From Schmidtea nova (taxonomy: Eukaryota): DNA of 64,000 nucleotides. Below, piece by piece: positions 13,004 through 63,804 of the stretch. The position numbers and the translations under genes were made by a program. Every line of letters starts with the position of its first letter. Within the stretch, counting starts at the first letter, position 1. Below the pieces are notes generated by a model that was given only the letters and a program-made list of their open reading frames with translations, was not told the DNA's origin and did not search any database. The DNA lies in the NCBI GenBank assembly GCA_044892505.1, contig CM097882.1, forward strand, positions 247,752,001 through 247,816,000. The letters are read 5' to 3'.

Positions 13004-13242
13004 TATGTGGAAGTTGGAAGATTTAAGAAATTTTTAATGAAAAATTTTAAAAATTAATTTTAAGATTGATTTTTAAAATATAAAAATATTTTTAATTAGA
13101 AAAATATTTTTTGGAAATTTGTTTAAATAACAAATTATTATGAAAACATTATTTTGATAAATATATTTTTCTGAAATAAAAGTTATGGATTCAAATTGTT
13201 GTAAAACTGATTCTAATGTTTTAAAGGATGAAAATCCTAATA
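13004..13242 (+). repeat. 5' LTR (239 bp) of small Gypsy
   Basis: TATGTGGAAG...ATCCTAATA; about 7 differences from the 3' copy by eye. Confidence 0.9.
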
Positions 13243-14288: not shown

Positions 14289-14429
14289 AAGAAAATTTGA
14301 TGGAAGGGGCAGAAAAGTGGGAGAATGTAGGAAAGGTAAGCGAGAAAATATACAGGTTCCTAAGAAAAGAAATGTTTGAAGAGGAAGTGGAAAGAATTGA
14401 AACCATTGAAACGGAGTAGGCTCTTGAAA

Positions 14430-17312: not shown

Positions 17313-17331
17313 AATTTCTTAAGAAGGGGGA

Positions 17332-17569
17332 TATGAGGAAGTTGGAAGATTTAAGAAATTTTTAATGAAAAATTTTAAAAATTAATTTAAGATTGATTTT
17401 TAAAATATAAAAATATTTTTAATTATAAAAATATTTTTTGTAAATTTGTTTAAATAACAAATTATTAAGAAAACATTATTTTGATAAATATATTTTTCTG
17501 AAATAAAAGTTACAGATTCAAATTGTTGTAAAACTGATTCTAATGTTTTAAAGGATGAAAATCCTAATA
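17332..17569 (+). repeat. 3' LTR (238 bp) of small Gypsy, preceded by PPT AAGAAGGGGG (17321-17330)
   Basis: Direct repeat of 13004-13242. Confidence 0.9.
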
Positions 17570-43068: not shown

Positions 43069-43419
43069 TTATACATCCTCAGTTGAATCTGGCTCTGGAT
43101 ACACGTCTATCTCATTTACAATCCAGCTCGTCCAACTATCCGGTATCTCTTCCTCTTCATGTCTCGTTAATCGGTCAATCTCCTCTGCTTGCCAGTTGTT
43201 CACTTCATTCAATGTTCGATTCTCGTTCTGTAATTCGTTTATCTGTATTTGTTGGATCTCAATTTTGTTCATTGCTTCGAAATTACAGTTGTAACTCTCG
43301 GTTAATAATTGCGTTTTGGCCGTCAACTGGCTCTGTAATTCATTTACTGTTCTGGCTAGCAGGTCGCATTGTACTTTCCATCTCGTCATCATTGACATCT
43401 CGATATTTTCTTGGTTCAT
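43069..43419 (-). CDS. 116-aa coiled-coil protein with acidic tail (accessory ORF)
   Basis: Open frame, co-oriented, heptad pattern. Confidence 0.6.
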   Translation of the reverse strand: MNQENIEMSMMTRWKVQCDLLARTVNELQSQLTAKTQLLTESYNCNFEAMNKIEIQQIQINELQNENRTLNEVNNWQAEEIDRLTRHEEEEIPDSWTSWIVNEIDVYPEPDSTEDV

Positions 43420-43544: not shown

Positions 43545-46500
43545 CTATACAACTATCACTGGTTTTCCTTCGTACAGTTCCTCGTCCTCGATCTGTACCC
43601 ACATTTCTTCGTGTTTTGATCGTCTTTTCAGCTCTTCTCGTACTTCTTTTGGTAGTTTTATGTTGTAATTCGTGACCTTTACGTCCGGCCATTTTACTGC
43701 TATGGTCTTATTTCTCATGCCATATCTCCAACATACTATCATGATCGTTATCAGTGGGATACACGCTATGAATACTCCCATGCTGATTAAACCCATTATT
43801 GTTTTCCCGATGTTCATTCTTGGAGTTTCACTTTGGTTTATCATCACGCCATATTGACCTTTCCATTCCGCTTCCCATTGTTCATATTGTTGTTGTCTCC
43901 GTCTGACTTCTTCAATCACTTTCTCTGGTTCCCATCTTTCTTGGCGGTTTGGTATTGTTTCTTCCTTCTCGTTTTGTTCTCTCTTCTGACTCAATTCTCG
44001 GAATTCTAACTTTCTGATTCTCCTCTTTATCGGCGTGTAATAGGTTTCGCACCTTTCTTGTGGATTTCCTTGTGTATCCACTTCTTCAATTGCACACACT
44101 TCGTATTCTGCGTTTGTTTTCAACTTCCTCATTTCTACCTCAATAATTTCTCCTTTGTCATCTGCGGTCTTTTGACATCTTCGTGGAGACTTTCCCATAC
44201 TGTTTGGCATTAATGTCCAACAGATTTCTAGGACCTTTTTATGGATCTTCCATATTATCAACGTTGTTGATTCCGATTCGTGTTCTATTGTCGTGCTTTC
44301 TGTGGTTGCCTGTTGAGTTCCTTGACTGTTTGTTGTCGTGGTTCTTTTTGACTTTCTTTTCCTCTGTCGACTTCCTCCCATTTCAATCGTTCTTGTTCCG
44401 TTAATTTGCTCTGGCGTCTTGTACAGTTTGCACTCCAGGCTTCTTAGTATTATTTCTCTTATTCTTCGAATTACGCAAATTTCGTAGGTTTGTCCGACTT
44501 CGAATCCATTTAGTTGAAACGGGATTCCTCGTTCTCTCGTTCTACATTGCGGTATTATGTTGTTGGTCGATACTCCGATGTATTTTCTCCAACACATCCC
44601 AATTGTTCTCCGACCAATGTTTTTTATCTCCACGGTTACTACTTCATTCGCAATCGTTTCTTGATCTTGTTTCTTTCTTTTTGGGAACTCAATTATCTCC
44701 TTTGCTTGGAACACTTTACACTCGCTTGTTCCTGGTCTGTTTCCGTTTGCTGCTTTTCCCATGAGACATAGTTCACATTTTCTATCTGTCTCCATTTCGG
44801 TTATCTCAATTTCTTCATTTGTCTCTGCTTCTCGACTTTCTCTTGTTTCGCTGATTCCAATTACTTCATTGTTTCGTCCCCAACATCTTCCATTCGTTGT
44901 TCGTTGGTCTTGGATATTTACTAACGTCATCACGCTGATATCTATGTCCTCCATGATTCTCTTAATGAGAATTAATATTAATGCTACACATATCAATTCT
45001 GGTTGGAATGTTAATTTGCCCGCTGAATTTTTGGTTATTCTTTCTTTCTCTGTTCGGTTTCTGATTCCCTCTTCTGCTTCCGTTTGATTCTTCCCTTTCT
45101 CTGGTTCTACTTCTGTTCTTCTCGTTGTCTCTTCGCTTCTTTTCTCAATCCATTTCTGTATTTTCAGCGCTTCTGTTGCTTTATATAATTGACATGCAGT
45201 TACTTGAGGTGCTTTTGGTTCTCCTCTCTGCTTTATTGCGCATATTATGTATGACTTTTCTTTCTCCAACCCTTTGATTTGGATGACGTCTCGCTTCAAA
45301 TCTGACAATATACACTTCAGCGTATCGTTTTTCTTCAGATTTTCTTTCCAGCATATTCTTTCGTATACTTCATTTCCTCTGATTATTTCCAGCGTGACGT
45401 ATTGTTTCTTGGCTTCTCCTTGTCCGATGATTGTTATCAATATCGCTATACACAACATTTCTGGTCTCAAAAGTAGACTTCCTGTTCGTTTTCCATGGTT
45501 CGCACATTCGTCTTTTGTTCCACTGTTTTCTCGTTCTTCTGCTTCTCTTTTCTTGTCGTTTCTCGTTGGCTTTGGTTCTTCTTGTCTTTCTTTTTCATCA
45601 TCTTCCGTTCTTTTGTTGTCATTGTCTTCTTTGTTCTTTTCGTTGTTACTTTTGTCGTCGAAATCTCTGTAACCACCCCCTGGTCCTTTGAAAATGTCGT
45701 CCTCGACATTAATTTCTTTAATCAATCTTTCATACGCTTGAACCGCGAGTGTGCTAGACTCGAATTCTCGTATTTCCATCTCTTTGGATGGTTCTATGTT
45801 TTCTAGTCTACTTTGCTTGATTGTTTCTTTGGCTTTTGCCCATTCATTCACATATTTTCTGAACAAGTCTTTCCATCTTCCCATTCGTTCCTGTTCCTTT
45901 GGGTTGTTCGTAAGTTTCAAATCTCTTCTCTTCAAGAATTCTTCTACTATCTCTGGCTTTTTGTGTCTTAATAACGCGCTTCTGATACACCAATTCTGGT
46001 TCTGTTCCATATGATCATTGATCTTGAACGCTGGTTCCTTAGTGACCGGATTCACCCATGTTAGTAATGCTCTTGTTTTCTCTATGTCGTGTATCATTAC
46101 TGTTAGACTGAAATTCTTTACGTTATTTGCCAGATATTCGATGTCATCCTGTTTCTTGATGGACTTTATGAACTTGATCATCTCGAAGTTGTTCCACTGT
46201 ATTGCGATATCTATGATGGAATTGTTCTTTCCATTTTTCCCTTCGATTTTTGCTCCTGCTTCGTATAATTCATTTAGCACTTTCAACTTCGTCTTCTTTC
46301 TTGCTGCGATTATCATGATTGTATCTCCGTTATCGTCAACCGTATTCATGTCTGCTTCGCACTTGACCATTGCTTTCGTTATTTCTAGCACTTCGTTTTC
46401 TTTCTTTCGGCGTAATGCCCAGTGTATCGGCAATCTCCCATCCTTTGATAATAGGAATGCCACTGGCATTTGATTTTTGATCGTTTCTATGTCGATCTCG

Positions 46501-49500
46501 TTATAATCCCCTTGTGCATATCTGTGCACTCTCTCTGTAATTGCTCCTAGTATTTCCAACGAGTTTTTATTCTCTTTGAATTCCGATAATTTTTCCTGTG
46601 CTTTTGCTACGATTGCATCTAGTCTCTCTTGATATTCCGCTTTTGCATTGAACAACACTGCTTTGCTTCTTATTCGTGTTTGCATCTGTTTCATCCGTTG
46701 GTCTTGATACACTGCTTGTCTGAAGAACTGTCCATACTTCAATGTTTCCACTAACTCTTTATATCGCTTGCTTATTTCTTTGTGCTGCTTTTGGATGTCA
46801 TAGAAATGTTCAAAGCTCATATCCGGATTCCATTGTTTATCACACCATTTCTTGATTAATCCGAATAATTCTTTCTTTCTGTCTTCCAGCTTGTATTCTC
46901 TTGGGTTCTCGCTAACCCGTAGCGTATCTCTCGCTATCAACACTGCAAGTGTTTTTGGATCGTATGTTACCTCTACTAGATGTTTCAGTAACGCATTTTC
47001 TCCCCTTATGAACACTTCATTACAATCGACGACCCATGAATCTCTTTCTGGTCGTTTCCACTTTAACAGTATTCTCCAGGTTTTACTGTTTTTTACCCTG
47101 ATTGCTTGTTTCATGATCGATCCTCTAGTTAGTTCATCGATTTCCCACGTGGCATTTTCCGTAATATACTTTAGTATTCGGTGATTCGCTCTATCGATTG
47201 CATGATTCAAGAACGTTCGTCCCTCTTTATCTTTTGTCATCCAATTCGATCTGGTGTTTCCGAATAGCTTGACTATTTCATCGTTTCTTCCATGAATTGT
47301 CATCATCATAAGTGGAGTAATTCCTTCCCAATTCACTTTGTCAATTTCTCCTCCACCTTCGAGTATCATCTCCACAATCTCTTTCACTTTTTCGTTTCCA
47401 CCGTGCTTGATTGCATTGTGCAACGCGGTGTTGCCGTCTTTATCTTGTAGATTCAATGTTTGAGGGATTACCTCTAGCAGCGTTCTTGTTATTGGATGTG
47501 CTGTTCTATCCTTCGCATACTCCATTACATTCTTTCGAACCTCCGTCAGTATATTGAAATCGAGCCACCATTTCCATTCTGGTATAATTTCTCTGGTTTT
47601 CTTTGCCAGTTCTTTGATATCTATTGCTTCTCTTCGATTGTCTTCTAGACTTGTTTGCGGCTTTTGTTGTACTCGCAACATATTGATTCTCGCCGTCTGT
47701 GATCTTGTCATCACCCGTTTTTCCGGTAATAGAGTTGCTGTCTTTGGTACTTTTCTGCATCGACATGCATTCACGTATATTGGTCTTACCAATGGATTGT
47801 TCACCAATCGTACTCGCACATTATTTTCGTTTACTGTTGTTATTTCGTATGGCCCTTTGCCTGGTCGTTGGAGTTTCTTGACTGTACCGGGTATTATCTC
47901 TGGTGTCTCGATTATCACCCAATCTCCAACTTTTAAATCAGGTGCTTTCACATTCTTTTTCTGATCATGTAGATCCTTGTAACTCTCTTGATAGAACTTG
48001 ATGTTTAGTTCCGCCGTTTTCCAGATTTCTTGCATTCTTTCTTTGAACTTTGTAACGTAATCGTCAACCTCCATGTACTGTGATAATGGTGGTTGGTATT
48101 CTAAATCGATCGGTAAGTTGCAATCTCTTCCGTACATTAGTTGGAATGGACTTAGCTTTGTTGCCGCATGTATTGACATTCTATATGCCATTAAACACAA
48201 GTTGATATACTCGTCCCAGTCAGTCTGATGTTTGCTGACGTAATTCGACAACATGCGTATCAATGTTCCATTGAACCTTTCTGTTTGTCCGTTCGTTTGT
48301 GGATGGTATGGGGATGTTCGTAATTTCGCAATTCGGAAGTAGTTCGTAACTTCGTCTAATATTTCACTCATGAAATTTGTTCCTTGATCCGTTAGGATTT
48401 TCTTTGGTGTTCCGTATCTGCAGCATATCTCTTCCACCAATATTCTTGCGACTGTTTTCGCTTTTTGATCTGGTATTGCGAACGCTTCTGGGAACTTTGT
48501 TAGATAGTCCGTGACTACTAATATATACTGATTTCCCTTTAAACTTTCCGGTAATGGTCCAACTACATCCATTGCTATCGTCGCCATAGGTTCTGCAGGT
48601 ATTGGCATTGGTTTCAGGGGTGTTTTCCACTTTGTTCCGACGTTCTTTCTTGTCGCACAGGTCAAGCAGTTCTTTATCCATTCTTTCACATCATCTTCCA
48701 TGGTTGGCCAAAAATACTTTTGTCTCAGTCTTCCGCTTGTCTTTTTTGCAGACATATGTCCGCCTAATTTTCCGTCATGATATTGAGTCATGATTTCTTT
48801 TCGTCTATTCGCAGGTAAGCACATTAATCTTCGTTCTCCATCTTGTATCAATAACCATCCTTTTTCCATCACATATCTATGTTGATATTTCTGCATATGT
48901 TCGCGCAACGTTTGGTTCTTGCCGAATATTTCTGTTTCCCTTTCTTTCAAATACTTGCTGATCATTCCCAACTCCTCGTCTTCGAGTTGATCTTTCCTTA
49001 GTTCGTTGAAATCCAAATCTTCCGCTATTAATGCACATATTTTCAGGGCGTTTAGGTTCACCAATTCTGGGAATGTAAATCTTGACATACAATCCGCATT
49101 TGCATTTGCTTTTCCTGCTTTAAACTTTATGAATGGCGAGTATTCTTGCAACTGCATTGCCCAACGCATCAATCTACTTGATGATTCTTTATGTTGACCT
49201 AACCATACTAGCGGTTGATGATCCGTCGTGATATATATTTCATGACCCCACAATAGGTACTTGAAATGCTTGATTGCCAATATTATCGCATAGGCTTCTC
49301 TTTCCGTGACTGAGTAATTCTTTTCATGCTTCCTGAACGTTCGACTGTAATATCCAATTACTCTTTCCTTGCCTTCTTCGTCAAATTGGCCTAGTACTGC
49401 TCCTGCTGCATATCCACTTGCGTCTGTTGCCAACAGAAATGGCTTCTTAAAGTCTGGATGGACCAATATTGGTGCTGTAATCAGCTTATCTCGTAATGTT

Positions 49501-52500
49501 TCAAATGCTGCTTGTTGCTCTTCTCCCCACACAAACGACACGTCTTGTCTTACCAATTCTTGCATTGGCTTTGATATTCCTGCATAATCCTTGATAAACT
49601 TTCGATAATATCCACACAATCCCAAAAATTCTTGTATTTGAGTCACTGTCTTTGGTGGTGGACATTCTTTGACTTTTTCGATATTCCTTGGATCTGGTTC
49701 TTTTCCTTTTGCTGATACAATGTGACCTAAGAATGTCACTTTTTCTTTTGCCCAATCGCACTTTGACGGCTTTAATTTCAGTTTCCACTGTCTCAATTTC
49801 ACGAACACATTTCTGATGTCTTGCAAGTGACCTTCGAATGTTGCGGAGTAGATCAATAGATCGTCGATATACACCATGCATTGTTTTATGCCATGTGTTA
49901 CGAAATTCATGCATCTCTGGAATGATGCTGGCGCGTTTGTTAACCCAAACGGCATTTTCTTGAATTGGTACAGATCTCGTCCGATTGTAAATGCTGTCTT
50001 CTCTTTATCCTCGTCTTTCATTTTGATCTGCCAATATCCGCTTTTTAAATCTAATGACGTGAAATAAGCTGCTCCTTGTAACGTCAATAACATTTCGTTT
50101 ATGTCTGGCAGTGGGTACGTATCTCTTTTCGTAACGGCATTTAATCGTCTGTAATCGATACAGAATCTTTGAGTTCCATCCTTCTTTTTCACCATCACCA
50201 CCGGGAATTGCCAGGGTGAGCAACTAGGTTCGATGACCTCTGCATCTAACATCTTTTGTACCTCTTCTTCTGCCACTGCTTTTTGAGCTTCTGCCAGTTT
50301 ATATGGTCGTAATGCGATTGGCGTTTCGTCCGTCAACGGTATCGTGTGTAATGTTACGTCACATGTTCCTAAATCCAGATCTGATGCTGCGAATATATCT
50401 TTATATTCCATCAACAGTTTCTGTAACTGTTCTTTTTGTCGTTCGTCTAACAACACACTGTCGATTTTCCATGGTAATTCGTCTTTGCTTTTCTCGTTCT
50501 TGTCGGGTATTTCGATTTCGGACATGGGTGTCAATTTACCCAATCTCTCATTCTCGTATATTATCTTGTCCTCTTCGTCGAAGTTCACCAGATTTATCGG
50601 TATTTCTCCTTCTTGGTTTATCGTGACCAATTCTCTTGCCATTGGTAATTCTTTCTTTGCTTCGAACTTCTTACTCGGTTCGAATATCATATCTCCCTTT
50701 ATTGTTGAATCGATCTTGACATAGCACATCATTTCGTGCCTCGCTGGCACTACTATTTGTTCCGCACTTGCCACTTTAACTTTCATTCTGCAGATTTTTC
50801 CTGTTCTATCTTTTAGCTTCATTGCTCCTAGATCAATTACGATTTCCTTGAACAGGTCTGGCATCAGGTCAGTTCCAATAATACATGGTACACTCAGCGA
50901 TGGTATTACAGCGATGTACGTGTTGATCTCTGCACCTCGATGCTTAATTTTTACAAACCATCTTCCGGCTACTTCTACTGTCTCTTGACTGCACGCGATT
51001 ACATGTACGTTCGTCTTCTCGATTTCTCCTTGATTTTTCTCTGGTATATAATTAATGTCGATTGCCGAAATATTCGCGCCTGTATCGATCATTGCTTCGA
51101 TTTCTCTTCCATTTATTTCTACGGTTGTTGTTAAAATCGGTCCCATATTTGTGGACATAACCGCTATCGTGTGCGTGTCTTCTAACGAGTTTACACTTCC
51201 ACCTCGTTTTACTTTGCATCCTTCTGGAATTATCGGGTATATACTTGTCATCGGCATCATCTGCATCATATTTGGCTTCGCTTTGTATATCGGTTCGTTA
51301 TACATTGACTGAGGTGGAGCGCTGTATCTCCAATTCTCAACTGCACTCTTTTCGTTATACTGTGGAATCTGGTTTATATTCGCTTGTCCTCCTTGATCGT
51401 CATCGTCATCATCATCATTGCTTGAATCATCTTGTGTTCGATATCCTCTCACTCTTTCCCATAATCCTTTCCTTTCTTTCTTTAATTGTCTTCTTGCTTG
51501 TTCGTCTTGCATTATCTTTTTGAATTTCCTTCCAACATCTTCATTTGTTCCTCTCATTTTTGCAAGTATCTTCAACAACCTCTTTATTCGATGTATGTCT
51601 TTTGAGTGTCCGTGTAACACCATCGTTTTCGCAAGGAATGGTAAAAATCCTACTACCATTTTCCAATTCACTTTCTTTTCTCTCTTGTAGATGTCGAAAC
51701 ACGCTAACATTTGCGTTATTATCACTCTGACGATTTGTATTATCAGTATAACTCCCAGTATTCCAGCCATCATTTGTCCAAATATCAGGAATCTTCCCCA
51801 CATTGCCTTCATCATATTTTCTGTGGCTTTCTTGAAATGTGCCGGTGACAACAGCAGTTCGTAATTCGGTCCTTCTCGATAATTCGTTCCTCCCGTTATT
51901 GTTACGATATTTGACAGTAGTGCTTCTCTTCTTGCCGGGAATAATATATTCTGCCTTGCTGCTTCTAAATCTTTTGGACTATAGATTCCGTTGTTTGAGA
52001 CATCTACGTCGCTGAACTGTCTATCTTTTGACAACTGCATTAGCTCAAATTCTCTTGGTGCTAATACTTCGGTTCTTCCTGGGAACATAACCCATTTGCC
52101 ATCTGGCTTCTGATAAAGCGGTCCGTACGCATTACTACAGTTGAACGGATTTGGTTCAAAACTTGGTGGATTGATGATTCTCGTCACCGGTTGAACATAT
52201 CGTACTTTTCCTTTATAATCGATTTCTAGTTCGTTTGTACATTGTCCAGGTTTCAACTGCGTTGTTGCTGCTAGCGATGCGTGTGTCTTTTCGCAAATGT
52301 ATACATACATTGCCTCTCCAACCACTCTTCCGAAATGTCCTTCTCTCAGTGGTAATAATGGCATCGCGCTATCTGGATTCGTAATCGCTACGGCCAACTT
52401 TGTCTTTAATATTTCCCGATTCAGTATACAATCGTTGTTTATTAGATCATAGTACACTTTTTGCAATGAGGCTTGTCCTCTATGGAATAAGAAATCCATT

Positions 52501-55500
52501 TTATTATTCACATACAAGTGTAGCTTGATATCCATTGTGTCGATCTTGGGTTTCGCATTCGGTACTTCTTGCTTTGACACATATATTCCTGGATAGTTTG
52601 TTTCGTATACTGTTGTACTGCACTTAAGGGTTGCTTTCCCTTTTATGAATCTCATGCCCACATCCTGATTTGTGGTTATCAACACTGTTGGTGTGGTTCT
52701 CATCTCTATCCGTTTTTCTCTATGATCGGGTTTCAATTGTCTTTTATTCTCTAAAGCTTCTTTGAGATGTTTTGCTCTAGCTTTGTCGTCATCGTCTTCT
52801 TCTTGGAACGTTTTGCCTTGAATTTCGTCAAACTTTGCTCCTTGTAGCAGTTGTAATTGACATTCGTTCACTTTTGGTTTATACACCAAAGTTGACATTC
52901 CCGTTTGACACATGCTTCTGTCAATTTTACACATGGATAACGTTTTCATTTCTCCTGTTGTTGGTTCGAAGAATGCTTCGTAGCTTTTCAGTTCGACTAT
53001 ATACGTATCCATTACCACTAAGTTGGTTGCAGGTACTCCAAATATTGGGTAGGTTTCTCCTTGACAATATCCTTCTCCTCCCGTAATTCGTCCTGCTACG
53101 TAATATGTCTGCTGTAACATCATTCCTGGCTTTCCTCTTATCTTGATTTTATCTCTCGTTGTCACTTCTCCATGTTTAAACAATGCTTCGCAGTCTTCTC
53201 CCTGTAACACGATTGGTTCTCTTTCTGTTCCTGGCATGACAATTGCTGAGTAATGTCCTCTACCGCAATAGAATGCGAATCTCGTCTTCTGTACCTTGCA
53301 TTCATTCACCATTGTCTTTATTAGTTCTGCCTCTTGATATACGTGGTACCATTGTTCCTTTTTTATCTCTTTTAACTCTACGGGAGTTGCATCTTTGCAC
53401 TGCTCCGTACCTCTCAATGAGTACTTCTCTCCCAACTTCATTTGATCACAGTCAAATACTTCAAATGTTGTTACACCTTCTGTGCTTAACAACCAAACTA
53501 GCATCATCATGATTATCGAGTTTAGATTCAACGTCGATCTTCCGTTTCCTTGCATCGTTTGTCTATTCTCCATTTCTCTCAATACTCCTTCGAGTTTCTT
53601 TCTCATCACGTTAGAACCTTCTTTTGTCTGGTTCTCTTTTATGAACTTTTCCCATCCTCCTTTTCTGAGGATATATGGTTCAATTTCCTTCTCGATAATC
53701 ATCGCCGTATTTTTAATATGTCTTCCCATCGGACTTGACTTCGGACTTCCTCGGCTTAGCGTTAGCAAATTGTATATCGTATACGAGATTGCTACTAGAT
53801 ATTTGCTATCCGTCTCTGCTCCGTTAAGTAGCCTTTTTATCAACATCGTGGTTCCTTGCCAATCTAGATGATTCGATTTTGTTTTTGCCTTTATCAATTC
53901 TGGCATAATCGGTGCTATTGCATTGTGTAGCATTCTTGCCTTTGTACTGGGTTCGTTTATCCGCCACAAATTCTTTAATTCTGGGTCAATTATCGCTAAC
54001 ACATCCATTATCGTTTTGGTGAGCCATTCTTCTCCTTGACAAACTTGATTCTCCTCTTTTCCTCTGATCTCTGCGATTTTATCCAATTTCTTCAAGCAAA
54101 TCTCCCATTGCTCTTGTCTCCTTTCTTCCCTTGTCTTTGGGATTGCTGTTGCTGGATCTATCTTTGGTCTTCCTCTTGGTCGTTTTTCCATTCCAGTTCC
54201 TGTTTCTACAAATCTCGATGTTCTTCCGGTTTCTTCCGTAACATCTCTTCCTTCGTTTGCTCGTTGTTCTAACCATCTTTCCATTTCTTGAGTAAACTGT
54301 GGTTGTTCTTGCTCGTCTTCCGAATCGCTTACCATTTCTATGACTACCTCCTGTTCCACTCCTTGATCGTCGATTTCTGCTGGTGACGTTATTGGCATCT
54401 CTATTATTCTGTCGAAAATATTCGCCGTTGGTTTTTGAGTCAACTTCGTTAGTTCTTCTATCGCCTCATCACTATCTGTTAGTATCTCATCCACGTCATA
54501 CGCTTCTGGTGGTGTTCTCTCTCTCGTTTTTATTGGTGTTGTCCTTGCTTGTCCCGAACTTGTTCCTGGGGTCATTGTTGACTTCATCGGACTTGGTGTA
54601 CTCATGCTCCCTTTCGTTTTCTTTTCCTCTTTAAACTTCAGTGGTTGACCCACTATCTGTGCCACTGTTAGCGTATTCATTAGATCCAATTGCACTGGTG
54701 TCAGCCAGATTTCCAAATTATTATCCAACGATCGTCCTTGATGTTGCAGGTGGAATGGTAGTTCGTACATCAGTTTCTCTTTAACACTCTTCACTTTTTC
54801 TGTTAGCATCACCCAAAACTCTTCTTTTCTCTGATTCGGATACATTATCCTCAAATGTATTTTCTGTGGCGTTTCCTCCGCAAACTCTTTGTTTCTCCAC
54901 TTTTTTATTACATCGTCTAGTTGCTCTGGACACCACTCGTTAACTCTCTTGTATTCTGCTATCGCTTTAGCTACTTTTCTCAAGTTTGTCATGTCTTCTC
55001 CATTTGAGATTATGAATTGTGCTAAGCCTTTTATTGTTTGTCTTTTTCCCCGAGTATTCCCTCTCAACAGTTCGATCAATTCACTCGTTTTCTGTTTCTC
55101 CAATTCTGCCCATATTACTGCAGTTTCTGGTCCGTCTAAGTCCGTTGGTAATAACTTCCTTGTTACCATACATATCCGTTTCGTATTCCGTTCATATCTG
55201 TCTTCTCCTTCCGGATCTTCTTCATACACGCCTCTTTTCACTTTCCAACATTTCTCTTTGTTATCCCATTGTTTCTCTACTGGCGTCAATCGTCGTCTGT
55301 TAAGATCCACTTCTCCTAATATTGTCTCCCATTCTGGCTTCATCTGCCAGTTCCGATAGATTTCTACTATTTGTCTCAACTTACGCATAACGTCCTCTTG
55401 TCGTTTCTTTCTCCTTTCTTCATCCCTTGGTGTTGCTCTTTGCACATCATCCATTCTGATGACATGTATTGTCTGATAATTATCCCATATGCCGATTTTG

Positions 55501-58412
55501 TACGCTCGTCTTTCGTCACGTTCGTTCAGTAGATGTTCCTTGTATTTTATCGCAATGTCATCCTCGAATTCATCTTCCCGTTCTCGTTGTAATATCGTCT
55601 CATTGATGACATCTACTATTTCTCCCACTTTACTATCTGGTATTACCTCAATTTGTTTTGTCTCTTCGTTTGGTAATCTCACGGTAATCTTCAGATCTGA
55701 TACCTCTCCTCGTTTAAACATTTCTTTTCCCATCTTGGCAATTAGCTTGTCCGTCTTGAAATTTGAATGTCTCGTTTGACTTGTATCTCGTATGTTCTCG
55801 ATACACTGTTTCAAATTCTCATACTCGTTTTTCGTCAATTCCTTTCGATGTTTCTTGATTTGTTGGATGATCTGTTCTATCATCGTATTCAAATTCTCCG
55901 TCAAGATTCTTTCCTTTGCCTCTACCAACTGAGGTTTTATTCTCATCTCATAACACGTATTTGCTTCTTTGACGATTCCCTGTAAGTTCTCTTCCTTCTT
56001 GGTGTTGCATATTGATAACGTCGTTATTTCTCCTGGCCATATGCCTGTGTCTATCATATGCGTTCCTTTTCTCACCAATCCGTTTCCCGAATATATGAAC
56101 TTGTCTTTGTACGAGCTTCCCAATCTGTCCTCAACCCATCGATAAATTCCGTCTGTCATTGGGTTCCTTATCCAGATTCTCGGTGAGCACTCGTTTATCC
56201 ATATGTGTATTACGTATTCGTTCAGTGGTTCTTTCAATAACTTCTCTATGAATTCTTGTATTACCCTCACTTCTCTTTCTTGTAACCACTCTTTATACTT
56301 CGTCTGCCATACTGCTCGTATAAACTTTCGGTATCGTTTCGTGTCGATAAACTCCTCGTTATGGATTACTTCCAACGCATTATCCATCAGCTTCTGGATT
56401 TCATCTTCCTTTACTAATGCTGTTTCTATTGTCTTGACCACTTCCATCTTTTTATCCTCGTTTTCCGGTTCCTTTAGCATGTCTCCTGCCAGACTGCTAA
56501 CTTCGCTGTCGTCTTCTTCCTCTGACAACTCTTGTCTTGGGTGTCTCAGCATCCCAATATGTGCGGTTGGTCTCGCTTCGTTTTTGCTAACTTCTTGTAT
56601 TAGTTCATTCTCGTTTCCTGTTACTTCAGCTTTTCCCATTCTTTTCTCCAACTCATCTATTTCTTCCAACCGTCTTCGTCTTATTTTTCCTTTGAATATT
56701 CGACTGATCCGAGTTTGATGTTTCACTGGTGGTGGGATTTTCTCCGGTTCCACCTCTCTGATGATCATCACGTTTATTTTCGTCTCCGTTACTCCCATAT
56801 CTTCCCATATATCAGTCATCTTTAACTTCACTTCCGGTAAATCCTCTGTTTGTAGGAATGCTTCTCTGGGCAGTTTCGTCACTCCCGGAATCATCTCATT
56901 TACTTTATTGAACAATCTTCCCACTTCTTCTTTTACATCGTATTTGAATCGCCACACGTGATCATTCGGCATGATCACCAACATCCCTCTTTGTTTGATT
57001 CTTACTTCCTCTTCTTGATTCGCTTCTTTTTCTATTTCTTCAACTTTTTGATCCTGCTCTGCGGCTTCTACTTCCTGATTCACTTCTCCTTGTTTCTGCT
57101 CTTCGTTTCTTTTCTCTTTAATTTCTAACTCGTCTGACTCATCTTGCTGCTTCTCTTCCATCGTTGCTCGCATCATGTTGATCCTTGGATTTCCCTTTTT
57201 TAACTGTTGTAATCGTTGTTGCCTGACTTGTTCTTCTTCTCGTCGTACTCTAGCCCATTCTTGATTATGTTTCTGTTGACTCTCTCTGTTTTCTCTTTCG
57301 GCCTCAGCTTCTATTAACTGGATCATGTTTATCTTTGGTTGAGCAGCTTGTTGGCTTCCCTTTGCCATGCTTTCGATTATCTCGTGTAATCTGGATACCT
57401 CCTGTCTCAACTTAGCTTCTTTCATACTAGCTTCGTTTGCACTGCTGTTTGGGTTGTTCCGTTGTTGGCCTTGATTCCCATAGCTTGGTCGATTCCCGTA
57501 ATTCGGTCTATTTCCACTGTTTGACCAACTTCTCTGTTGATTACAGTCTCTTGACATGTGTCCGGTTTTTCCACATGTGTAACACGTTTTCCCATAACAT
57601 CGATTTTCTGAGTGACCTTTTTGTCCACACAGTTTACAGGCTACATTCTGAAAACAGTCTTGTTGCCAATGTCCGTTTTTCCCACACGTCTGACATTGCC
57701 TATTCTGCCTGTCATTGTAACTATTTCCTCCATTCGTGTTCACCGTGATATATCCGTTATTCTTCCTCGCTGGCGGTTCTTTGAACAATCTCTGCGAATG
57801 GGGAATACTTTGATTCATGTTTCTTTTTCCTTGTTCTTCATCTTCTGTCGTTTTTCCCATTACCGCCGTAATTCTCATGTCGTTCATTTCCATATGCAAT
57901 TCGAATAGGTTGGCTGCTTCCAACGCTTCATCTACTGTTTTACATCCTTTGCATCCCACTTGTGCTCTGATGTCAGGTCTCCTGAGACCTCGTACGAATA
58001 ACGCTGTCATCAATTCTTCGTCTACTGGGCTTCCTCTATTGAATGCCAGTTTCGCCAACTTCCTTAATTCGCTTGCGTACACCGCATTTGACTCGTTTCT
58101 CCTCTGTTTTCTTGCTGAGAACTCATCGAACGCTTCATTCAGCACCTTGTTTATCCCAAACGTCTGTTGGAAGAACTCCTTGATTGCTTCCCACGTTCTG
58201 GGTGGATTACTTCCCGATCTCTTTTCAATATACAGATCCAATGCGCTATCTTTTAAGTATAGCGGGATTCGATTTGCTAACGTTTCTGCACTCCATCCGC
58301 ATATATCTACGAATATGCCAAATTCCTTCAGAAACGTATCCAATCTACTGGCGTCTCCATTGAATGGTTCGCCCTTGAATTTTTCTCTTAGATCCTCTCT
58401 GTGATCACTCAT
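43545..58412 (-). CDS. 4955-aa polyprotein: Gag, Ubl-like, Bcl-2-like, class III glycoprotein, PR, RT, RNase H, IN, ankyrins, FN3-like repeats, TM
   Basis: Single open frame. Gag MHR-like QRRNESNAVYASELRKL; 3 CCHC knuckles (~57690-57545); DTG (51086); YIDD (~49870); TDAS...EREAYA; HHCC, D-D-E and GPY integrase; TALH/TPL ankyrins. Confidence 0.97.
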   Translation of the reverse strand: MSDHREDLREKFKGEPFNGDASRLDTFLKEFGIFVDICGWSAETLANRIPLYLKDSALDLYIEKRSGSNPPRTWEAIKEFFQQTFGINKVLNEAFDEFSARKQRRNESNAVYASELRKLAKLAFNRGSPVDEELMTALFVRGLRRPDIRAQVGCKGCKTVDEALEAANLFELHMEMNDMRITAVMGKTTEDEEQGKRNMNQSIPHSQRLFKEPPARKNNGYITVNTNGGNSYNDRQNRQCQTCGKNGHWQQDCFQNVACKLCGQKGHSENRCYGKTCYTCGKTGHMSRDCNQQRSWSNSGNRPNYGNRPSYGNQGQQRNNPNSSANEASMKEAKLRQEVSRLHEIIESMAKGSQQAAQPKINMIQLIEAEAERENRESQQKHNQEWARVRREEEQVRQQRLQQLKKGNPRINMMRATMEEKQQDESDELEIKEKRNEEQKQGEVNQEVEAAEQDQKVEEIEKEANQEEEVRIKQRGMLVIMPNDHVWRFKYDVKEEVGRLFNKVNEMIPGVTKLPREAFLQTEDLPEVKLKMTDIWEDMGVTETKINVMIIREVEPEKIPPPVKHQTRISRIFKGKIRRRRLEEIDELEKRMGKAEVTGNENELIQEVSKNEARPTAHIGMLRHPRQELSEEEDDSEVSSLAGDMLKEPENEDKKMEVVKTIETALVKEDEIQKLMDNALEVIHNEEFIDTKRYRKFIRAVWQTKYKEWLQEREVRVIQEFIEKLLKEPLNEYVIHIWINECSPRIWIRNPMTDGIYRWVEDRLGSSYKDKFIYSGNGLVRKGTHMIDTGIWPGEITTLSICNTKKEENLQGIVKEANTCYEMRIKPQLVEAKERILTENLNTMIEQIIQQIKKHRKELTKNEYENLKQCIENIRDTSQTRHSNFKTDKLIAKMGKEMFKRGEVSDLKITVRLPNEETKQIEVIPDSKVGEIVDVINETILQREREDEFEDDIAIKYKEHLLNERDERRAYKIGIWDNYQTIHVIRMDDVQRATPRDEERRKKRQEDVMRKLRQIVEIYRNWQMKPEWETILGEVDLNRRRLTPVEKQWDNKEKCWKVKRGVYEEDPEGEDRYERNTKRICMVTRKLLPTDLDGPETAVIWAELEKQKTSELIELLRGNTRGKRQTIKGLAQFIISNGEDMTNLRKVAKAIAEYKRVNEWCPEQLDDVIKKWRNKEFAEETPQKIHLRIMYPNQRKEEFWVMLTEKVKSVKEKLMYELPFHLQHQGRSLDNNLEIWLTPVQLDLMNTLTVAQIVGQPLKFKEEKKTKGSMSTPSPMKSTMTPGTSSGQARTTPIKTRERTPPEAYDVDEILTDSDEAIEELTKLTQKPTANIFDRIIEMPITSPAEIDDQGVEQEVVIEMVSDSEDEQEQPQFTQEMERWLEQRANEGRDVTEETGRTSRFVETGTGMEKRPRGRPKIDPATAIPKTREERRQEQWEICLKKLDKIAEIRGKEENQVCQGEEWLTKTIMDVLAIIDPELKNLWRINEPSTKARMLHNAIAPIMPELIKAKTKSNHLDWQGTTMLIKRLLNGAETDSKYLVAISYTIYNLLTLSRGSPKSSPMGRHIKNTAMIIEKEIEPYILRKGGWEKFIKENQTKEGSNVMRKKLEGVLREMENRQTMQGNGRSTLNLNSIIMMMLVWLLSTEGVTTFEVFDCDQMKLGEKYSLRGTEQCKDATPVELKEIKKEQWYHVYQEAELIKTMVNECKVQKTRFAFYCGRGHYSAIVMPGTEREPIVLQGEDCEALFKHGEVTTRDKIKIRGKPGMMLQQTYYVAGRITGGEGYCQGETYPIFGVPATNLVVMDTYIVELKSYEAFFEPTTGEMKTLSMCKIDRSMCQTGMSTLVYKPKVNECQLQLLQGAKFDEIQGKTFQEEDDDDKARAKHLKEALENKRQLKPDHREKRIEMRTTPTVLITTNQDVGMRFIKGKATLKCSTTVYETNYPGIYVSKQEVPNAKPKIDTMDIKLHLYVNNKMDFLFHRGQASLQKVYYDLINNDCILNREILKTKLAVAITNPDSAMPLLPLREGHFGRVVGEAMYVYICEKTHASLAATTQLKPGQCTNELEIDYKGKVRYVQPVTRIINPPSFEPNPFNCSNAYGPLYQKPDGKWVMFPGRTEVLAPREFELMQLSKDRQFSDVDVSNNGIYSPKDLEAARQNILFPARREALLSNIVTITGGTNYREGPNYELLLSPAHFKKATENMMKAMWGRFLIFGQMMAGILGVILIIQIVRVIITQMLACFDIYKREKKVNWKMVVGFLPFLAKTMVLHGHSKDIHRIKRLLKILAKMRGTNEDVGRKFKKIMQDEQARRQLKKERKGLWERVRGYRTQDDSSNDDDDDDDQGGQANINQIPQYNEKSAVENWRYSAPPQSMYNEPIYKAKPNMMQMMPMTSIYPIIPEGCKVKRGGSVNSLEDTHTIAVMSTNMGPILTTTVEINGREIEAMIDTGANISAIDINYIPEKNQGEIEKTNVHVIACSQETVEVAGRWFVKIKHRGAEINTYIAVIPSLSVPCIIGTDLMPDLFKEIVIDLGAMKLKDRTGKICRMKVKVASAEQIVVPARHEMMCYVKIDSTIKGDMIFEPSKKFEAKKELPMARELVTINQEGEIPINLVNFDEEDKIIYENERLGKLTPMSEIEIPDKNEKSKDELPWKIDSVLLDERQKEQLQKLLMEYKDIFAASDLDLGTCDVTLHTIPLTDETPIALRPYKLAEAQKAVAEEEVQKMLDAEVIEPSCSPWQFPVVMVKKKDGTQRFCIDYRRLNAVTKRDTYPLPDINEMLLTLQGAAYFTSLDLKSGYWQIKMKDEDKEKTAFTIGRDLYQFKKMPFGLTNAPASFQRCMNFVTHGIKQCMVYIDDLLIYSATFEGHLQDIRNVFVKLRQWKLKLKPSKCDWAKEKVTFLGHIVSAKGKEPDPRNIEKVKECPPPKTVTQIQEFLGLCGYYRKFIKDYAGISKPMQELVRQDVSFVWGEEQQAAFETLRDKLITAPILVHPDFKKPFLLATDASGYAAGAVLGQFDEEGKERVIGYYSRTFRKHEKNYSVTEREAYAIILAIKHFKYLLWGHEIYITTDHQPLVWLGQHKESSSRLMRWAMQLQEYSPFIKFKAGKANANADCMSRFTFPELVNLNALKICALIAEDLDFNELRKDQLEDEELGMISKYLKERETEIFGKNQTLREHMQKYQHRYVMEKGWLLIQDGERRLMCLPANRRKEIMTQYHDGKLGGHMSAKKTSGRLRQKYFWPTMEDDVKEWIKNCLTCATRKNVGTKWKTPLKPMPIPAEPMATIAMDVVGPLPESLKGNQYILVVTDYLTKFPEAFAIPDQKAKTVARILVEEICCRYGTPKKILTDQGTNFMSEILDEVTNYFRIAKLRTSPYHPQTNGQTERFNGTLIRMLSNYVSKHQTDWDEYINLCLMAYRMSIHAATKLSPFQLMYGRDCNLPIDLEYQPPLSQYMEVDDYVTKFKERMQEIWKTAELNIKFYQESYKDLHDQKKNVKAPDLKVGDWVIIETPEIIPGTVKKLQRPGKGPYEITTVNENNVRVRLVNNPLVRPIYVNACRCRKVPKTATLLPEKRVMTRSQTARINMLRVQQKPQTSLEDNRREAIDIKELAKKTREIIPEWKWWLDFNILTEVRKNVMEYAKDRTAHPITRTLLEVIPQTLNLQDKDGNTALHNAIKHGGNEKVKEIVEMILEGGGEIDKVNWEGITPLMMMTIHGRNDEIVKLFGNTRSNWMTKDKEGRTFLNHAIDRANHRILKYITENATWEIDELTRGSIMKQAIRVKNSKTWRILLKWKRPERDSWVVDCNEVFIRGENALLKHLVEVTYDPKTLAVLIARDTLRVSENPREYKLEDRKKELFGLIKKWCDKQWNPDMSFEHFYDIQKQHKEISKRYKELVETLKYGQFFRQAVYQDQRMKQMQTRIRSKAVLFNAKAEYQERLDAIVAKAQEKLSEFKENKNSLEILGAITERVHRYAQGDYNEIDIETIKNQMPVAFLLSKDGRLPIHWALRRKKENEVLEITKAMVKCEADMNTVDDNGDTIMIIAARKKTKLKVLNELYEAGAKIEGKNGKNNSIIDIAIQWNNFEMIKFIKSIKKQDDIEYLANNVKNFSLTVMIHDIEKTRALLTWVNPVTKEPAFKINDHMEQNQNWCIRSALLRHKKPEIVEEFLKRRDLKLTNNPKEQERMGRWKDLFRKYVNEWAKAKETIKQSRLENIEPSKEMEIREFESSTLAVQAYERLIKEINVEDDIFKGPGGGYRDFDDKSNNEKNKEDNDNKRTEDDEKERQEEPKPTRNDKKREAEERENSGTKDECANHGKRTGSLLLRPEMLCIAILITIIGQGEAKKQYVTLEIIRGNEVYERICWKENLKKNDTLKCILSDLKRDVIQIKGLEKEKSYIICAIKQRGEPKAPQVTACQLYKATEALKIQKWIEKRSEETTRRTEVEPEKGKNQTEAEEGIRNRTEKERITKNSAGKLTFQPELICVALILILIKRIMEDIDISVMTLVNIQDQRTTNGRCWGRNNEVIGISETRESREAETNEEIEITEMETDRKCELCLMGKAANGNRPGTSECKVFQAKEIIEFPKRKKQDQETIANEVVTVEIKNIGRRTIGMCWRKYIGVSTNNIIPQCRTRERGIPFQLNGFEVGQTYEICVIRRIREIILRSLECKLYKTPEQINGTRTIEMGGSRQRKRKSKRTTTTNSQGTQQATTESTTIEHESESTTLIIWKIHKKVLEICWTLMPNSMGKSPRRCQKTADDKGEIIEVEMRKLKTNAEYEVCAIEEVDTQGNPQERCETYYTPIKRRIRKLEFRELSQKREQNEKEETIPNRQERWEPEKVIEEVRRRQQQYEQWEAEWKGQYGVMINQSETPRMNIGKTIMGLISMGVFIACIPLITIMIVCWRYGMRNKTIAVKWPDVKVTNYNIKLPKEVREELKRRSKHEEMWVQIEDEELYEGKPVIVV

Positions 58413-59279: not shown

Positions 59280-59760
59280 TCTCATTGGCCTGCTGGGTTT
59301 TCCAGTCAGCGCCTTTAATCTCACCTTTTATCTCGAACTCTGTTTCTCTCCATTTCACTCATTATCTCATTAGCCTGCTGGGTTTTCCAGTCAGCGCTTT
59401 TAATCTCTCCCTTTTACTGTTATCTCTTTATTCTCGACCACGACTGTCGTTTCATTAGCCTGCTGGGTTTTCCAGTCAGCGCTCTTATTATCCTCCATTT
59501 ATCTCTTTACTGTCGACTTTTAACTGCTCTTTACTCCGATGATCATCACTTTTGACCTGCTGGGTCTTCCAGTCAGCGTCCTCAATTTCACCACTTTATT
59601 GTTACTCCCTTTTATTCTCTCGATCTTTCCTGATCGTTTCCATTGACCTGCTGGGTTTTTCCAGCTAGCGTCTTTACCCCTTTACCTGTCTTAACAAACC
59701 GGTTTCTTTTTATTCCCCTCGAATCTCATGGTCTGCTGGGTTTTCCAGTCAGCACCCTCC
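59280..59760. repeat. Six spaced copies of CTGCTGGGTTTTCCAGTCAGC in the 5' leader
   Basis: Copies at ~59290, 59375, 59459, 59557, 59648 and 59733, spacing ~85-100 bp, with variable spacers. Confidence 0.85.
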
Positions 59761-60072
59761 ACTTACTCACTTTACTTTACTACTCCTCTTTGTATGCATA
59801 CTTTAACATCATTAGGCCACATAATCAGCTTTACTCGCATTTATCAATACCCAGGTGCGCACCTTCAACTCTCACATTATTACCTCGGTTTCTTTCAACC
59901 CTTATTCCTCATTATTCGCTATTCATTTTCACTATTCATCATTTATCCTCATTATCATTTATTCATCGCTTATTAATCTTCATTATCCGGATAGTTTTAT
60001 ACTTTATTTAGTCCTCATCTGCCTCACTTCGTCGTCTTTCTCGTGGGCTTTTACTCAATATTTTATTTCGAA

Positions 60073-60623
60073 CGAGAACTATGCTCACTGCTGAGAACTA
60101 TGCTCACTAACGAGAACTATGCTCAATGACGAGAACTATGCTCAATGACGAGAACTATGCTCACTGACGAGAACTATGCTCACTGACGAGAACTATGCTC
60201 ACTGACGAGAACTATGCTCAATGACGAGAACTATGCTCACTAACGAGAACTATGCTCACTGACGAGAACTATGCTCAATGACGAGAACTATGCTCACTAA
60301 CGAGAACTATGCTCACTGGCAAAACATGGTTGTTATGAGGGTTTTGCTTACTGATGGAAACTCTTTGCCCTGGGGACTATGTTCCCCGATGAGAACTACG
60401 CTCACTGATGGTGACTACAGGAATTATGTTTCCTGATGAGAACTACGCTCACTACGATGGCTATGTTTATTGATGAGAACTACGCTCACTGATGAGGACT
60501 ATGTTCGCTGGTCTTGTGTTTATTAATGAGAACTCTGCTCACTACGAGAACTATGCTCACTACGAGAACTATGCTCACTATGATGTTGTGTTTTTATGAC
60601 GAGACCTATGCTCACTAGGATGT

Positions 60624-60656
<33 letters not shown>

Positions 60657-60690
60657 GAGACCTATGCTCACTATGAGACCTATGCTCACG
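60073..60690. repeat. 19-bp tandem array (CGAGAACTATGCTCACTGA), ~13 copies to 60319, then degenerate copies
   Basis: Directly visible tandem repeat without spacers. Confidence 0.92.
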
Positions 60691-61388
60691 AACGAAAACT
60701 CGAAATATCATCTCTCAGTGGTTGCATGTGTTGCTTCGGGATGTTCCTCCCAGTGGTCACTTATGCTTCTTCGGAGAATCTATTGTCGCGTTTCGTTAAG
60801 TTCTGTCTTTCAAGAACTATGGGCAAATCCTTTCTCTCTAGGACCCCTTTTATTATTTCCTTTCTTTCAAGGATTTCCTTTAACCTCGAGTTTTCCATTG
60901 ACTCGGTTCATCTGTTATACCCCCTTATTCTATTATCGATTCGTCAACCTTTCTACTTGATTTTACCTTATGCGAGCTGATTACGTGCCTTTCATCATAT
61001 ACCACATTTTCTCTATTCATCTTACTCATTTCATTGCTTTATCTCTCTCTTTACTGATCAGTTTATCATCCTATTTTTATAGTTTTTCTGCGCGCGCCTA
61101 CACCTCATTAAGTTGTTCCTACCTTTCACCCCAACCAAAATATATAAAAAGATCGCATTGGTCCACTGATGCACGATGTGGTGATCAGTCACATCACAAG
61201 AGCTTTCCAATATCCGCGATTGGCCCCTTTCTACACATCTCGGGTAAGTTGATCAGTTGGTTCCCCCCAATGGGTGCTTATCGGACTACTCGTGAGTAGC
61301 TCATAATTACTTAGGTCATTTTTACCAAATCATTTTTAAACCCTCATAATTTCAATAACAACTGCACTTGCTCAAAACTTTATTTCTA

Positions 61389-61847
61389 TTACAAGTACAC
61401 TGTTATTTTCTCGGATACGGGAAGGTTGCACATAGGACATCGTTCATTTATTTTACACTCATTACAGAATCGAAAATGCCCACACGGCAACAACATTATC
61501 TGTATTTTGTTTATTTCACAGATATAACACGTCAGATATTGTCTCGTATGTTCTGTTGTTATTCTTATCCACTCATCGTGTTTTGTTGTTAACTGTTGTT
61601 CTAGCCTGTGGCACTCGATATTCATTTCGGGGTTGTTTAATCTTTCTCTGTACCATTTATATCTCGTTGCTGTATCCACTGTGTTCCTATTCTCGCTTAT
61701 GCTCATTATCATTTCGGCTCTCTCTGTGTTGTTTGTCGGTTCGTGGTATCCTTCTACCTCGAGTCGTCTTAACTTCCTCATTATTGTCTCCACTGTTTCG
61801 TTGTTTGTTTCGAAAAACGTTTGCATTTCTTTTATTTTGTTCTCCAT
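61389..61847 (-). CDS. 152-aa protein with C-terminal IAP-type C3HC4 RING finger (putative E3 ligase), upstream of gag
   Basis: CYICEINKIQIMLLPCGHFRFCNECKINERCPMCNLPVSEKITVYL matches the XIAP/cIAP-type RING spacing and terminal hydrophobic tail. Confidence 0.85.
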   Translation of the reverse strand: MENKIKEMQTFFETNNETVETIMRKLRRLEVEGYHEPTNNTERAEMIMSISENRNTVDTATRYKWYRERLNNPEMNIECHRLEQQLTTKHDEWIRITTEHTRQYLTCYICEINKIQIMLLPCGHFRFCNECKINERCPMCNLPVSEKITVYL

Positions 61848-62377
61848 CCCCTGAATGAATTACCGTTAATTTCTGTCGATCTTTATTTATTATTTATTAT
61901 TTCTATTCTATGGTAGCCCTACTGTTCGGTTTTTGTTGTTCTATTTCGCGCCACTGCGTATCCCCCCGTGTTCTTGAATGTCGCCCCGACATGATCATTG
62001 TTAGTTACTCACACTCATACCATTTTCATGCACACTTTTCCGCATACTTTTACCTTACGTCATGCATACTTTTCATCACTTTTCATACTGTTATTCCACA
62101 TACTATTCATCATACTTCATTCGTTCTCATACTTCCATTCCATTATCCTTCATACTTTCATTCTCATGCATACTTTCATCACGTTCATCAATCTCATTAT
62201 TTTACACTCATACTTTTATTTATTATTTTTCAACCCGATTCATTCTTGCTTCAGGACCCTCAAACCCTCTGTCATTCTTTACTTTACTTTTCCTCGCTAA
62301 ATTCAATTCATCCCGGTTCAGGCGCTCTAAACTGTCCGCAGATATCGAATTCACTTTTTCCCACAAAGATCGATTTA

Positions 62378-62395
62378 ATCCCGGCTGAGCCCCCA
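62378..62395 (-). promoter_or_regulatory. Primer binding site, tRNA-Pro type
   Basis: Minus strand TGGGGGCTCAGCCGGGAT, 16/18 to the MuLV tRNA-Pro PBS TGGGGGCTCGTCCGGGAT, 6 nt from the LTR end. Confidence 0.85.
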
Positions 62396-62401
62396 AATTT
62401 A

Positions 62402-63804
62402 TGCTGGTGTGTTGGTTAGATTGACAACTGAGATCCTTATGATTTTATACGTTAGGGTGATCTCGCCAACATAAAAACATTCCCCCGCTGACACCCATGA
62501 TGTATCCCTAACTACTCATCATGTTGGTACTGTGTCAACGTTGTGAAATGACAAGGCAGGTGAGCAACCTTTCGGCTACTATTCCCTTGTTTATTCACGG
62601 GTCCACCACTACCGATAGAAGGTGTCTGTGGCTTTCTTTCGGTCCCACTTATGCTCTTTACTTTTCTCTAGGGTTGATTCAATGTTATTACATCTGCGGC
62701 TTTAAATGAATCCGAGTTTTAGTTATATTCCATTCTCAGTCATTCCACAAACAAACAAGACAAGTCAAATCATTCATTTTATACATTTATTTGTAGTTCA
62801 ACAATACAGAGGGTCGGATTACATTTAGTAGTTCTTGCTCGGATAGACCACGATGTTACGCTTTACCTATCTCGATTCTCATCGACTTTTGATGTACCAG
62901 CACTCCTTGAAGGTACACCCCCTCGTCAAGATACCTCATGTATATATCTTCCCTTGCGAAATGAGCTTCACCTTGATTTGATTTATGACCATTAACTGTC
63001 ACTCGATACCCTATCATCCTGATGTATAGCGTTTATACTAGACCGCCTCTACTTTGATTTAGTTCATGATCATTAGGTCTTACTCGATACCCTATGTGCA
63101 GTTAACTCCTTCCGCTTTCCAAATATTTAATACACTTATGGTCCCGCCGCATCAGCACCTCACAACCGAAAGATTGTGTTGCGCTGAGAGGCCCCAAGAA
63201 TCCGTCAGGCTGTTAGGCCTCCGGAAAACCTTATGGATTTTAATATGATTAACAATTATAATTATGAGGGTTTAAAAGACTAAAACAACATGAATTACCT
63301 TTTATTCCTTTTCCAAATTCGTTTCACAATGTTCTCGGTAGTCACAAACAGTTCACACTTGGTAAAGATAACATTGTCAAATACTGATTTGACTTCAGTA
63401 TTTATACTGAACCGGTGTTGTTGGTTAGCCAATCAGCATCGAGTATGTGTGTATGTCTGCTTCATTTTTTATGTTGTCGGCTTTTTGCTGCCTAACTTAA
63501 CTCGCCGATTTGTTTGGTTAATCATGCGGTAAGTTTTTCTTAGTCATCAATTTATTTTATTTTATTTTTGTTTTAGGTCTTTGGTGACATCCGCCCACGC
63601 GCTGTCATATTCCAATTTTTCTGCTTCGCATGAGTGAGTTTTGAAGATTTTTGTTGTTTGATTTATATTTTATTTCTTTTAGATGTTGCCGCCTATTTTG
63701 TTACGCTTTGGTGTTGGTAATTTATTTTGTTGTTATTCTGTATTTAATTTATTTTATTGATTGTATATTATTTTCAGATGCTGCTCGATTTGGCTGGCCC
63801 AACA
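62402..63804 (-). repeat. 5' LTR (1403 bp)
   Basis: Direct repeat of 38107-39509; TG...CA termini. Confidence 0.97.

Follow-up and report, generated by a model that had tools for sequence, protein, structure and literature searches.

The window, a 64,000-nucleotide stretch of the Schmidtea nova genome (assembly GCA_044892505.1, contig CM097882.1, positions 247,752,001 to 247,816,000), contains an LTR element of 25.7 kb that runs from 63804 to 38107 and whose first gene is a 152-aa ORF on the minus strand (61847 to 61389) encoding a RING domain; the plus-strand frame across 61389..61847 is closed. The two 1.4-kb LTRs of the carrier are identical and the target-site duplication is the 4-bp TTGA, from which we conclude that the insertion is very young. 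The PBS-like 18-mer, which we take to be of the tRNA-Pro type, lies exactly 530 nt from the ATG of the RING ORF, in agreement with an initial annotation of this DNA that had placed such an ORF about 530 bp past the PBS and ahead of gag. The features of the element are collected in Table 1. The 386-aa ORF follows directly after TRAF, with no IAP between them, in 30/30 loci of this family.

Table 1. Features of the carrier element, in window coordinates
Feature	Coordinates	Strand
5' LTR, TG...CA, 1403 bp, identical to 3' LTR	62402..63804	-
PBS-like 18-mer, identical in sister family B	62378..62395	-
Splice-acceptor-like site 3 nt ahead of the RING ORF ATG	61851..61855	-
RING ORF, 152 aa: N-terminal helices, conserved Arg helix, long helix, C3HC4 RING, short Tyr tail	61389..61847	-
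Most constrained block of the RING ORF, aa 58-76, dN/dS 0.07; Arg69 inside	61620..61676	-
RING domain and tail (aa 107-152): eight Zn ligands, Ile109, Pro138, linchpin-position Asn141, Tyr151	61392..61529	-
Tandem repeat arrays (19-nt unit; ~50-nt dispersed unit) between RING ORF and gag	59280..60700	
4955-aa polyprotein: Gag knuckles, Monjiviricetes-type fusion glycoprotein, protease, RT, RNase H, integrase, ankyrin repeats	43545..58412	-
116-aa accessory ORF; homologue in sister family B	43069..43419	-
TRAF ORF: RING, zinc fingers, coiled coil, MATH; dN/dS 0.07-0.09	41565..42977	-
386-aa accessory ORF	40314..41474	-
3' LTR	38107..39509	-

A giant LTR element with gag, env and pol in one frame of ~5000 aa and with ankyrin and TRAF cargo, the carrier is, on these sequence features, a Burro-like Gypsy element matching the Burro/GYPSM1 description in the relevant passages of PMC6431247. 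The plant Ogre elements invoked in the initial annotation are not the right comparator; the planarian Burro described there fits. The Burro-like family of the window element is referred to below as family A, and a sister Burro family as family B. The outer ~950 bp of the LTR (window 62851-63804) varies among copies, the inner part being common, and the alignments of many copies begin at one shared boundary. Two AT-rich, intron-like GT..AG stretches of 48-49 nt lie antisense in the outer part (63529-63576 and 63634-63682, plus strand), hinting at a spliced antisense transcript. Elsewhere the window holds a large inverted-repeat structure (18210-23206) with internal repeats of 152 nt and 27 nt, a second, small Gypsy element (13029-17569) whose pol is broken and whose 214-nt direct repeats are 93% identical, and a 644-aa single-frame ORF (28517-30451, minus strand) with no Pfam match.

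The C-terminal part of the RING ORF (aa 105-145) matches the Pfam family zf-C3HC4_3 at 36.4 bits, against a cut-off of 27, and the ten best PDB sequence matches of the ORF are the RINGs of cIAP2, cIAP1, BIRC7 and XIAP. The protein ends in ...VYL-stop, Tyr151 aligning with the tail Phe of IAPs. The XIAP/cIAP-like RING with a terminal YL tail reported earlier was thus recovered, as was the profile match proposed as a check on it. Pfam reported no BIR in the five ORFs scanned from the carrier element, nor did a BIR profile run over all six frames of the element give a match at E<=0.05, in keeping with the lack of a BIR motif already remarked upon. Of the marks of an IAP (BIRC) protein, the RING ORF has the aromatic tail and, at its C-terminus, a C3HC4 RING belonging to the zf-C3HC4_3 class, and neither it nor the carrier has the BIR domain, at least one copy of which defines the class (PMC8869227). 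Judged by sequence, "IAP-type" describes the RING fold only, and the product is no IAP. Its predicted model was poor (pLDDT 49), and a word-index protein search with the ORF and its alignment returned no match at E<=0.001 among proteins of ~80-280 aa.

The RING ORF is repeated throughout the genome. Among 150 scored genomic matches, ranging from 100% down to 67% identity, 136 are without a stop, and the acceptor-plus-start context of the ORF has 133 exact matches. Pairwise dN/dS was 0.21 for the 47 distinct copies among 50 examined and was flat over divergence bins, compared with 0.09 for family-A gag (17 copies). Because this set had been chosen by protein score, the analysis was repeated on 30 copies chosen by their non-coding leader DNA; 29 of these were free of gap or stop, and dN/dS was 0.18 (bootstrap 0.11-0.24). 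For TRAF of this family it is 0.07-0.09. Variants shared between copies are more constrained than singletons (0.25 vs 0.39). The tightest constraint falls outside the RING, in aa 58-76 (0.07), and the loosest in aa 20-57 (0.36-0.41). A neighbouring plus-strand ORF (61910-62419), with dN/dS of 0.67 and stops in 31/47 copies, was rejected as spurious. The RING ORF is a real accessory gene under purifying selection, present in ~150 copies; the conservation across related copies on which the initial annotation had staked its proposal holds.

How such a gene is expressed is suggested by its upstream context. An acceptor-like CAG/TAG stands a few nucleotides ahead of the ATG, its AG being kept in 49/50 copies, and in the family-B orthologue an AG immediately precedes the ATG. 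The leader (window 61848-62850) carries 40 sense-strand ATGs, so that on unspliced RNA a scanning ribosome would be impeded from reaching the RING ATG. The acceptor-like site and the 33-40 upstream ATGs make splicing or trans-splicing likely, and the RING ORF is likely translated from a spliced (or trans-spliced) message. No uniquely conserved splice donor emerged among the candidates. A degenerate pattern for junction-bearing copies, in which the ATG lacks the acceptor pyrimidines, had 0 genomic matches, against 133 for the native context. Among the rows listed for four sequencing runs, which are not recorded as RNA, there were no splice-type joints; two of the four cover neighbouring non-element DNA by long uniform contigs, resembling DNA runs, and the set is uninformative on expression.

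The family-B orthologue is 160 aa long, 26% identical to the window ORF and collinear with it over the full length, and it occupies the same position, being the first listed ORF past the 5' LTR. The homology extends to the N-terminal parts alone, which align at 24.8 bits, a score reached by 0/500 shuffles. An exhaustive profile search of a public protein library gave P0001, which has no name, as the sole full-length match (E 1e-31), and by this alignment P0001 is a third orthologue; the full-length orthologues are 26-27% identical to the window ORF. Family B also encodes a separate 389-aa BIR...RING IAP between TRAF and the next ORF. This gene is intronless and directly follows TRAF (L031:748-1917, minus strand), and the genome contains at least 150 BIR matches, mostly of its type. 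Because family B has a BIR-IAP beside TRAF as well as a RING-only orthologue, the RING ORF is not a stand-in for an IAP. That it might be a clipped copy of the element IAP was likewise rejected, since family B has both and the N-terminal parts of the RING-only ORFs are homologous. A 15-row RING tree places the family-B IAP together with host-type IAP-like loci (98/99) and away from the RING-only ORFs, a split that is provisional given its long branches. A UBA origin of the N-terminus, suspected by eye, was unsupported statistically: 355/500 shuffles equalled the N-terminal profile against the UBA region of the family-B IAP, a comparison that a degenerate UBA could escape, and a fold search of a host-like relative gave no UBA match. 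Two family-B copies (G000:C1:393333084-393359339 and C1:480351604-480377477; LTRs of ~4.5-4.6 kb, ~100% identical) have no match to gag, env, RT or integrase and keep the RING ORF, TRAF, BIR-IAP and further ORFs open, and are candidate non-autonomous cargo carriers.

Weaker profile matches point beyond the elements. P0035, P0036, P0056 and P0119 have in common an Arg-Leu motif, a long helix and a short aromatic tail, and P0036 finds divergent, clustered, low-copy frames of ~175 aa in the Schmidtea nova genome. Clusters of these helix+RING frames lie at G000:C2:34.5-34.6 Mb and 81.1-82.1 Mb; no BIR was found within ~10 kb upstream at the 8 loci checked, and the clustered loci are probably host genes. 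Arg69 is invariant in 27/27 aligned family members, the Arg helix lying ~38 aa ahead of the RING, and the window ORF shares this helix, the long helix and the short aromatic tail. A host-like N-terminal profile matches family B (22.9 bits) and P0001 (16.3 bits), with 0/500 shuffles each; against the window ORF it scores 1.5 bits (146/500 shuffles), with an hhalign probability of 5-22%. In a tree of 39 rows, rooted at the midpoint only, Burro and host-like proteins are joined at 83/83, apart from IAPs. The RING ORF appears linked to this BIR-less helix+RING family through its orthologues, the support from the tree being weak, and capture likely proceeded from host to element. The P0036 model was confident (pLDDT 83), consisting of five short helices, a long helix and the RING, which fits cIAP and IDOL about equally in fold search. 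For its helical part Foldseek gave no match at E<=0.001, the best VIA Z was 5.9 and Atlas gave no usable match, which does not by itself establish a new fold.

Members of this family are also found in another kind of mobile DNA. A helix+RING exon of the host family is borne by an unrelated inverted-repeat element, of which at least 150 copies, 99-100% identical, are present; many of them (e.g. G000:C1:480328419-480338236) form divergent inverted pairs spaced ~8.7 kb, a pattern that suggests a mirror-image transposon of very young age. A further cluster, at G000:C2:315.68-315.85 Mb, is made up of UBA-RING genes that appear to contain introns; a BIR exon lies ~7 kb upstream of one of them, and the genes would be host-type RING-IAPs. 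According to the flatworm passages of a 2026 survey (PMC13159474), in which Schmidtea is unmentioned, RING-IAPs have been lost in the flatworms sampled; RING-bearing IAP-like genes in a genome of free-living-flatworm type contrast with this reported loss.

The residues of the RING bear on its chemistry. Of 50 family-A copies, 46-50 retain the eight Zn ligands, 47 retain Ile109, 46 Pro138 and 47 Tyr151. The Zn ligands, loop-1 hydrophobic residue, loop-2 Pro and tail Phe/Tyr of an active dimeric RING E3 are present at this frequency (46-50/50), but the cationic linchpin after the last Cys is replaced by Asn in 47/50 copies. Family B has a basic linchpin (Lys/Arg) in 40/40 copies and the loop-2 Pro in 0/40. 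Among ten host-like relatives the second-loop Pro occurs in none and a basic linchpin in two; given these gaps, and that of the Pro in family B, the family may consist of pseudo-ligases. In cIAP1, the tail Phe/Tyr works in trans within the dimer and full activity needs the linchpin Arg, as stated in the sections of PMC6349121 on this RING. RNF38 R454N is the second-weakest binder among the rows seen of a table in PMC12326332, with its column heads as we infer them; by the abstract of the same paper, binding does not track activity, and its text gives XIAP as active with a non-Arg linchpin, Tyr.

We propose, with a probability of roughly 45%, that the RING ORF is a selected Burro accessory gene, captured from the host and expressed by splicing, whose product would act as a modest, dimeric RING E3 of the IAP/IDOL class that picks a host target via its helical domain. 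A host BIR-less helix+RING gene would have been captured by a Burro-like element, and a spliced message from the element would yield the RING protein. Dimerisation would occur via the pre-RING helix and the Tyr151 tail, as in cIAP1, giving a RING ubiquitin ligase of modest strength, and the N-terminal helical domain would select the host target. Judging by the company the gene keeps, TRAF in family A, TRAF and an IAP in family B, and BIR/BCL2 in published Burro, the target may belong to a host death, stress or immune pathway that signals through ubiquitin.

A modest E3 is favoured, with a decoy close behind, because the RING retains its Zn ligands and tail Tyr but has Asn as its linchpin. As a decoy or dominant-negative RING, the protein would have little activity of its own and would heterodimerise with host BIR-less relatives or IAPs, inactivating or destabilising them. 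IAP RINGs do homo- and heterodimerise and so regulate stability, according to the portion of PMC3972657 on these domains, and the host-type cluster, where one UBA-RING exon has a BIR locus upstream of it, makes host targets plausible. Residues of the E2 site vary across orthologues, moreover, while the Arg helix, the Zn ligands and the aromatic tail stay. Against these points, Ile109 and Pro138 are kept under selection in family A, the linchpin of family B is basic in 40/40 copies, and the heterodimer is predicted by analogy with IAP RINGs. The dominant-negative E3 envisaged in the initial annotation accordingly stays a live rival through the Asn linchpin, yet the selected Ile109 and Pro138 and the basic linchpin of family B weigh against it, and we consider it somewhat less likely than a modest E3. 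The RING protein might instead act within the cycle of the element itself, by ubiquitylation of Gag or other element-encoded proteins or in particle release, as its place as first gene, its retention in two distant families and the env-like fusogen of the carrier would allow. This is improbable, considering that the ORF is intact beside TRAF and IAP in the two family-B copies devoid of gag, RT and integrase, and that it is related to host-like genes and to cargo of the unrelated inverted-repeat element.

The other suggestion of the initial annotation had been that the RING ORF product and the TRAF of the element form a functional pair, as cIAP and TRAF2 do. Both ORFs are under selection, both occur in families A and B, and a TRAF match lies <=40 kb downstream in 23-24/29 RING copies, with the TRAF positions for this count picked by eye; in diverged copies, where the windows were guessed, TRAF was found in 0/13 tiles. 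Co-carriage of this kind is expected of any cargo, however, and cIAP binds TRAF2 through BIR1 (as described in the cIAP part of PMC8869227). The BIR1 surface that contacts the TRAF coiled coil is absent from the RING ORF, as is any BIR from family A, and the natural candidate partner is the separate BIR-IAP adjoining TRAF in family B. The pairing is thus unsupported on the cIAP-TRAF2 model, and we regard it as very doubtful. Scarcely credible is a non-functional hitch-hiking host fragment: dN/dS is ~0.2 at all divergence levels, shared variants are under tighter constraint than singletons, and the frame has been held open across 26% identity, so that neutral hitch-hiking is largely refuted by the selection data.

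The preferred reading of a host-captured, modest E3 can be extended, tentatively, to a wider picture. These flatworms may own a family of BIR-less helix+RING proteins, undescribed and expanded, whose helical domain would be a new substrate-binding module, and which Burro and the inverted-repeat element would each have captured as an E3 or decoy against a host defence or death pathway, in the manner of a complex-virus accessory gene expressed from its own spliced message. The host family is apparently undescribed and unnamed. Our literature search found no paper on a stand-alone Burro RING ORF or on the BIR-less family; the figures and supplements of the primary papers on Burro/GYPSM1, reportedly Jurka 2007 and Grohme 2018, may show the ORF. 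To our knowledge, LTR retrotransposons rarely encode their own ubiquitin ligases. At 152 aa, soluble, selected and with host-like relatives, the RING ORF is the easiest Burro cargo to test, and the target of its protein would reveal a host pathway restraining Burro elements. Planarian xiap and traf2-1 affect infection pathology, as the passages on these genes in PMC4993586 report, which makes this pathway a plausible one.

Several known systems resemble parts of this one. The small RING-only or IAP-like proteins of iridoviruses, entomopoxviruses and NCLDVs are likewise virus-borne PF13920 RINGs, but none matched at E<=0.001, and the carrier here is an LTR retroelement. IDOL/MYLIP, MUL1, MEX3C and CGRRF1 belong to the same PF13920 class, IDOL/MYLIP scoring next to cIAP when the fold of a family member was searched, but have other substrate-binding modules. 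With cIAP1/2, XIAP and BIRC7 the RING ORF shares the RING spacing, the pre-RING helix and the C-terminal aromatic tail; it differs from them in lacking a BIR and any detectable UBA or CARD, in a tail one residue shorter, in its Asn linchpin and in an N-terminal helical domain without a clear structural match. The closest comparison is with Burro/GYPSM1, a giant planarian Gypsy element of ~25 kb whose gag-env-pol frame of ~5000 aa includes a fusion glycoprotein and ankyrins, as described in the Burro sections of PMC6431247. These sections list AIR1, Smc, MATH/TRAF, BIR, ankyrin, BCL2, SUMO-like and dUTPase motifs as cargo and advance, as an idea stated to be untested, that Burro meddles with host apoptosis and ubiquitination. 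A BIR-less RING ORF standing by itself in the stretch from PBS to gag is not mentioned in these sections; in the window element, furthermore, TRAF lies downstream of pol, and family A has no BIR. In its size, its polyprotein with fusion glycoprotein and ankyrins, its TRAF accessory ORF and its ubiquitin/apoptosis cargo the window element is nevertheless like Burro/GYPSM1, and to this known kind of element the RING ORF adds a new accessory gene whose functionality is well supported by the selection on it.
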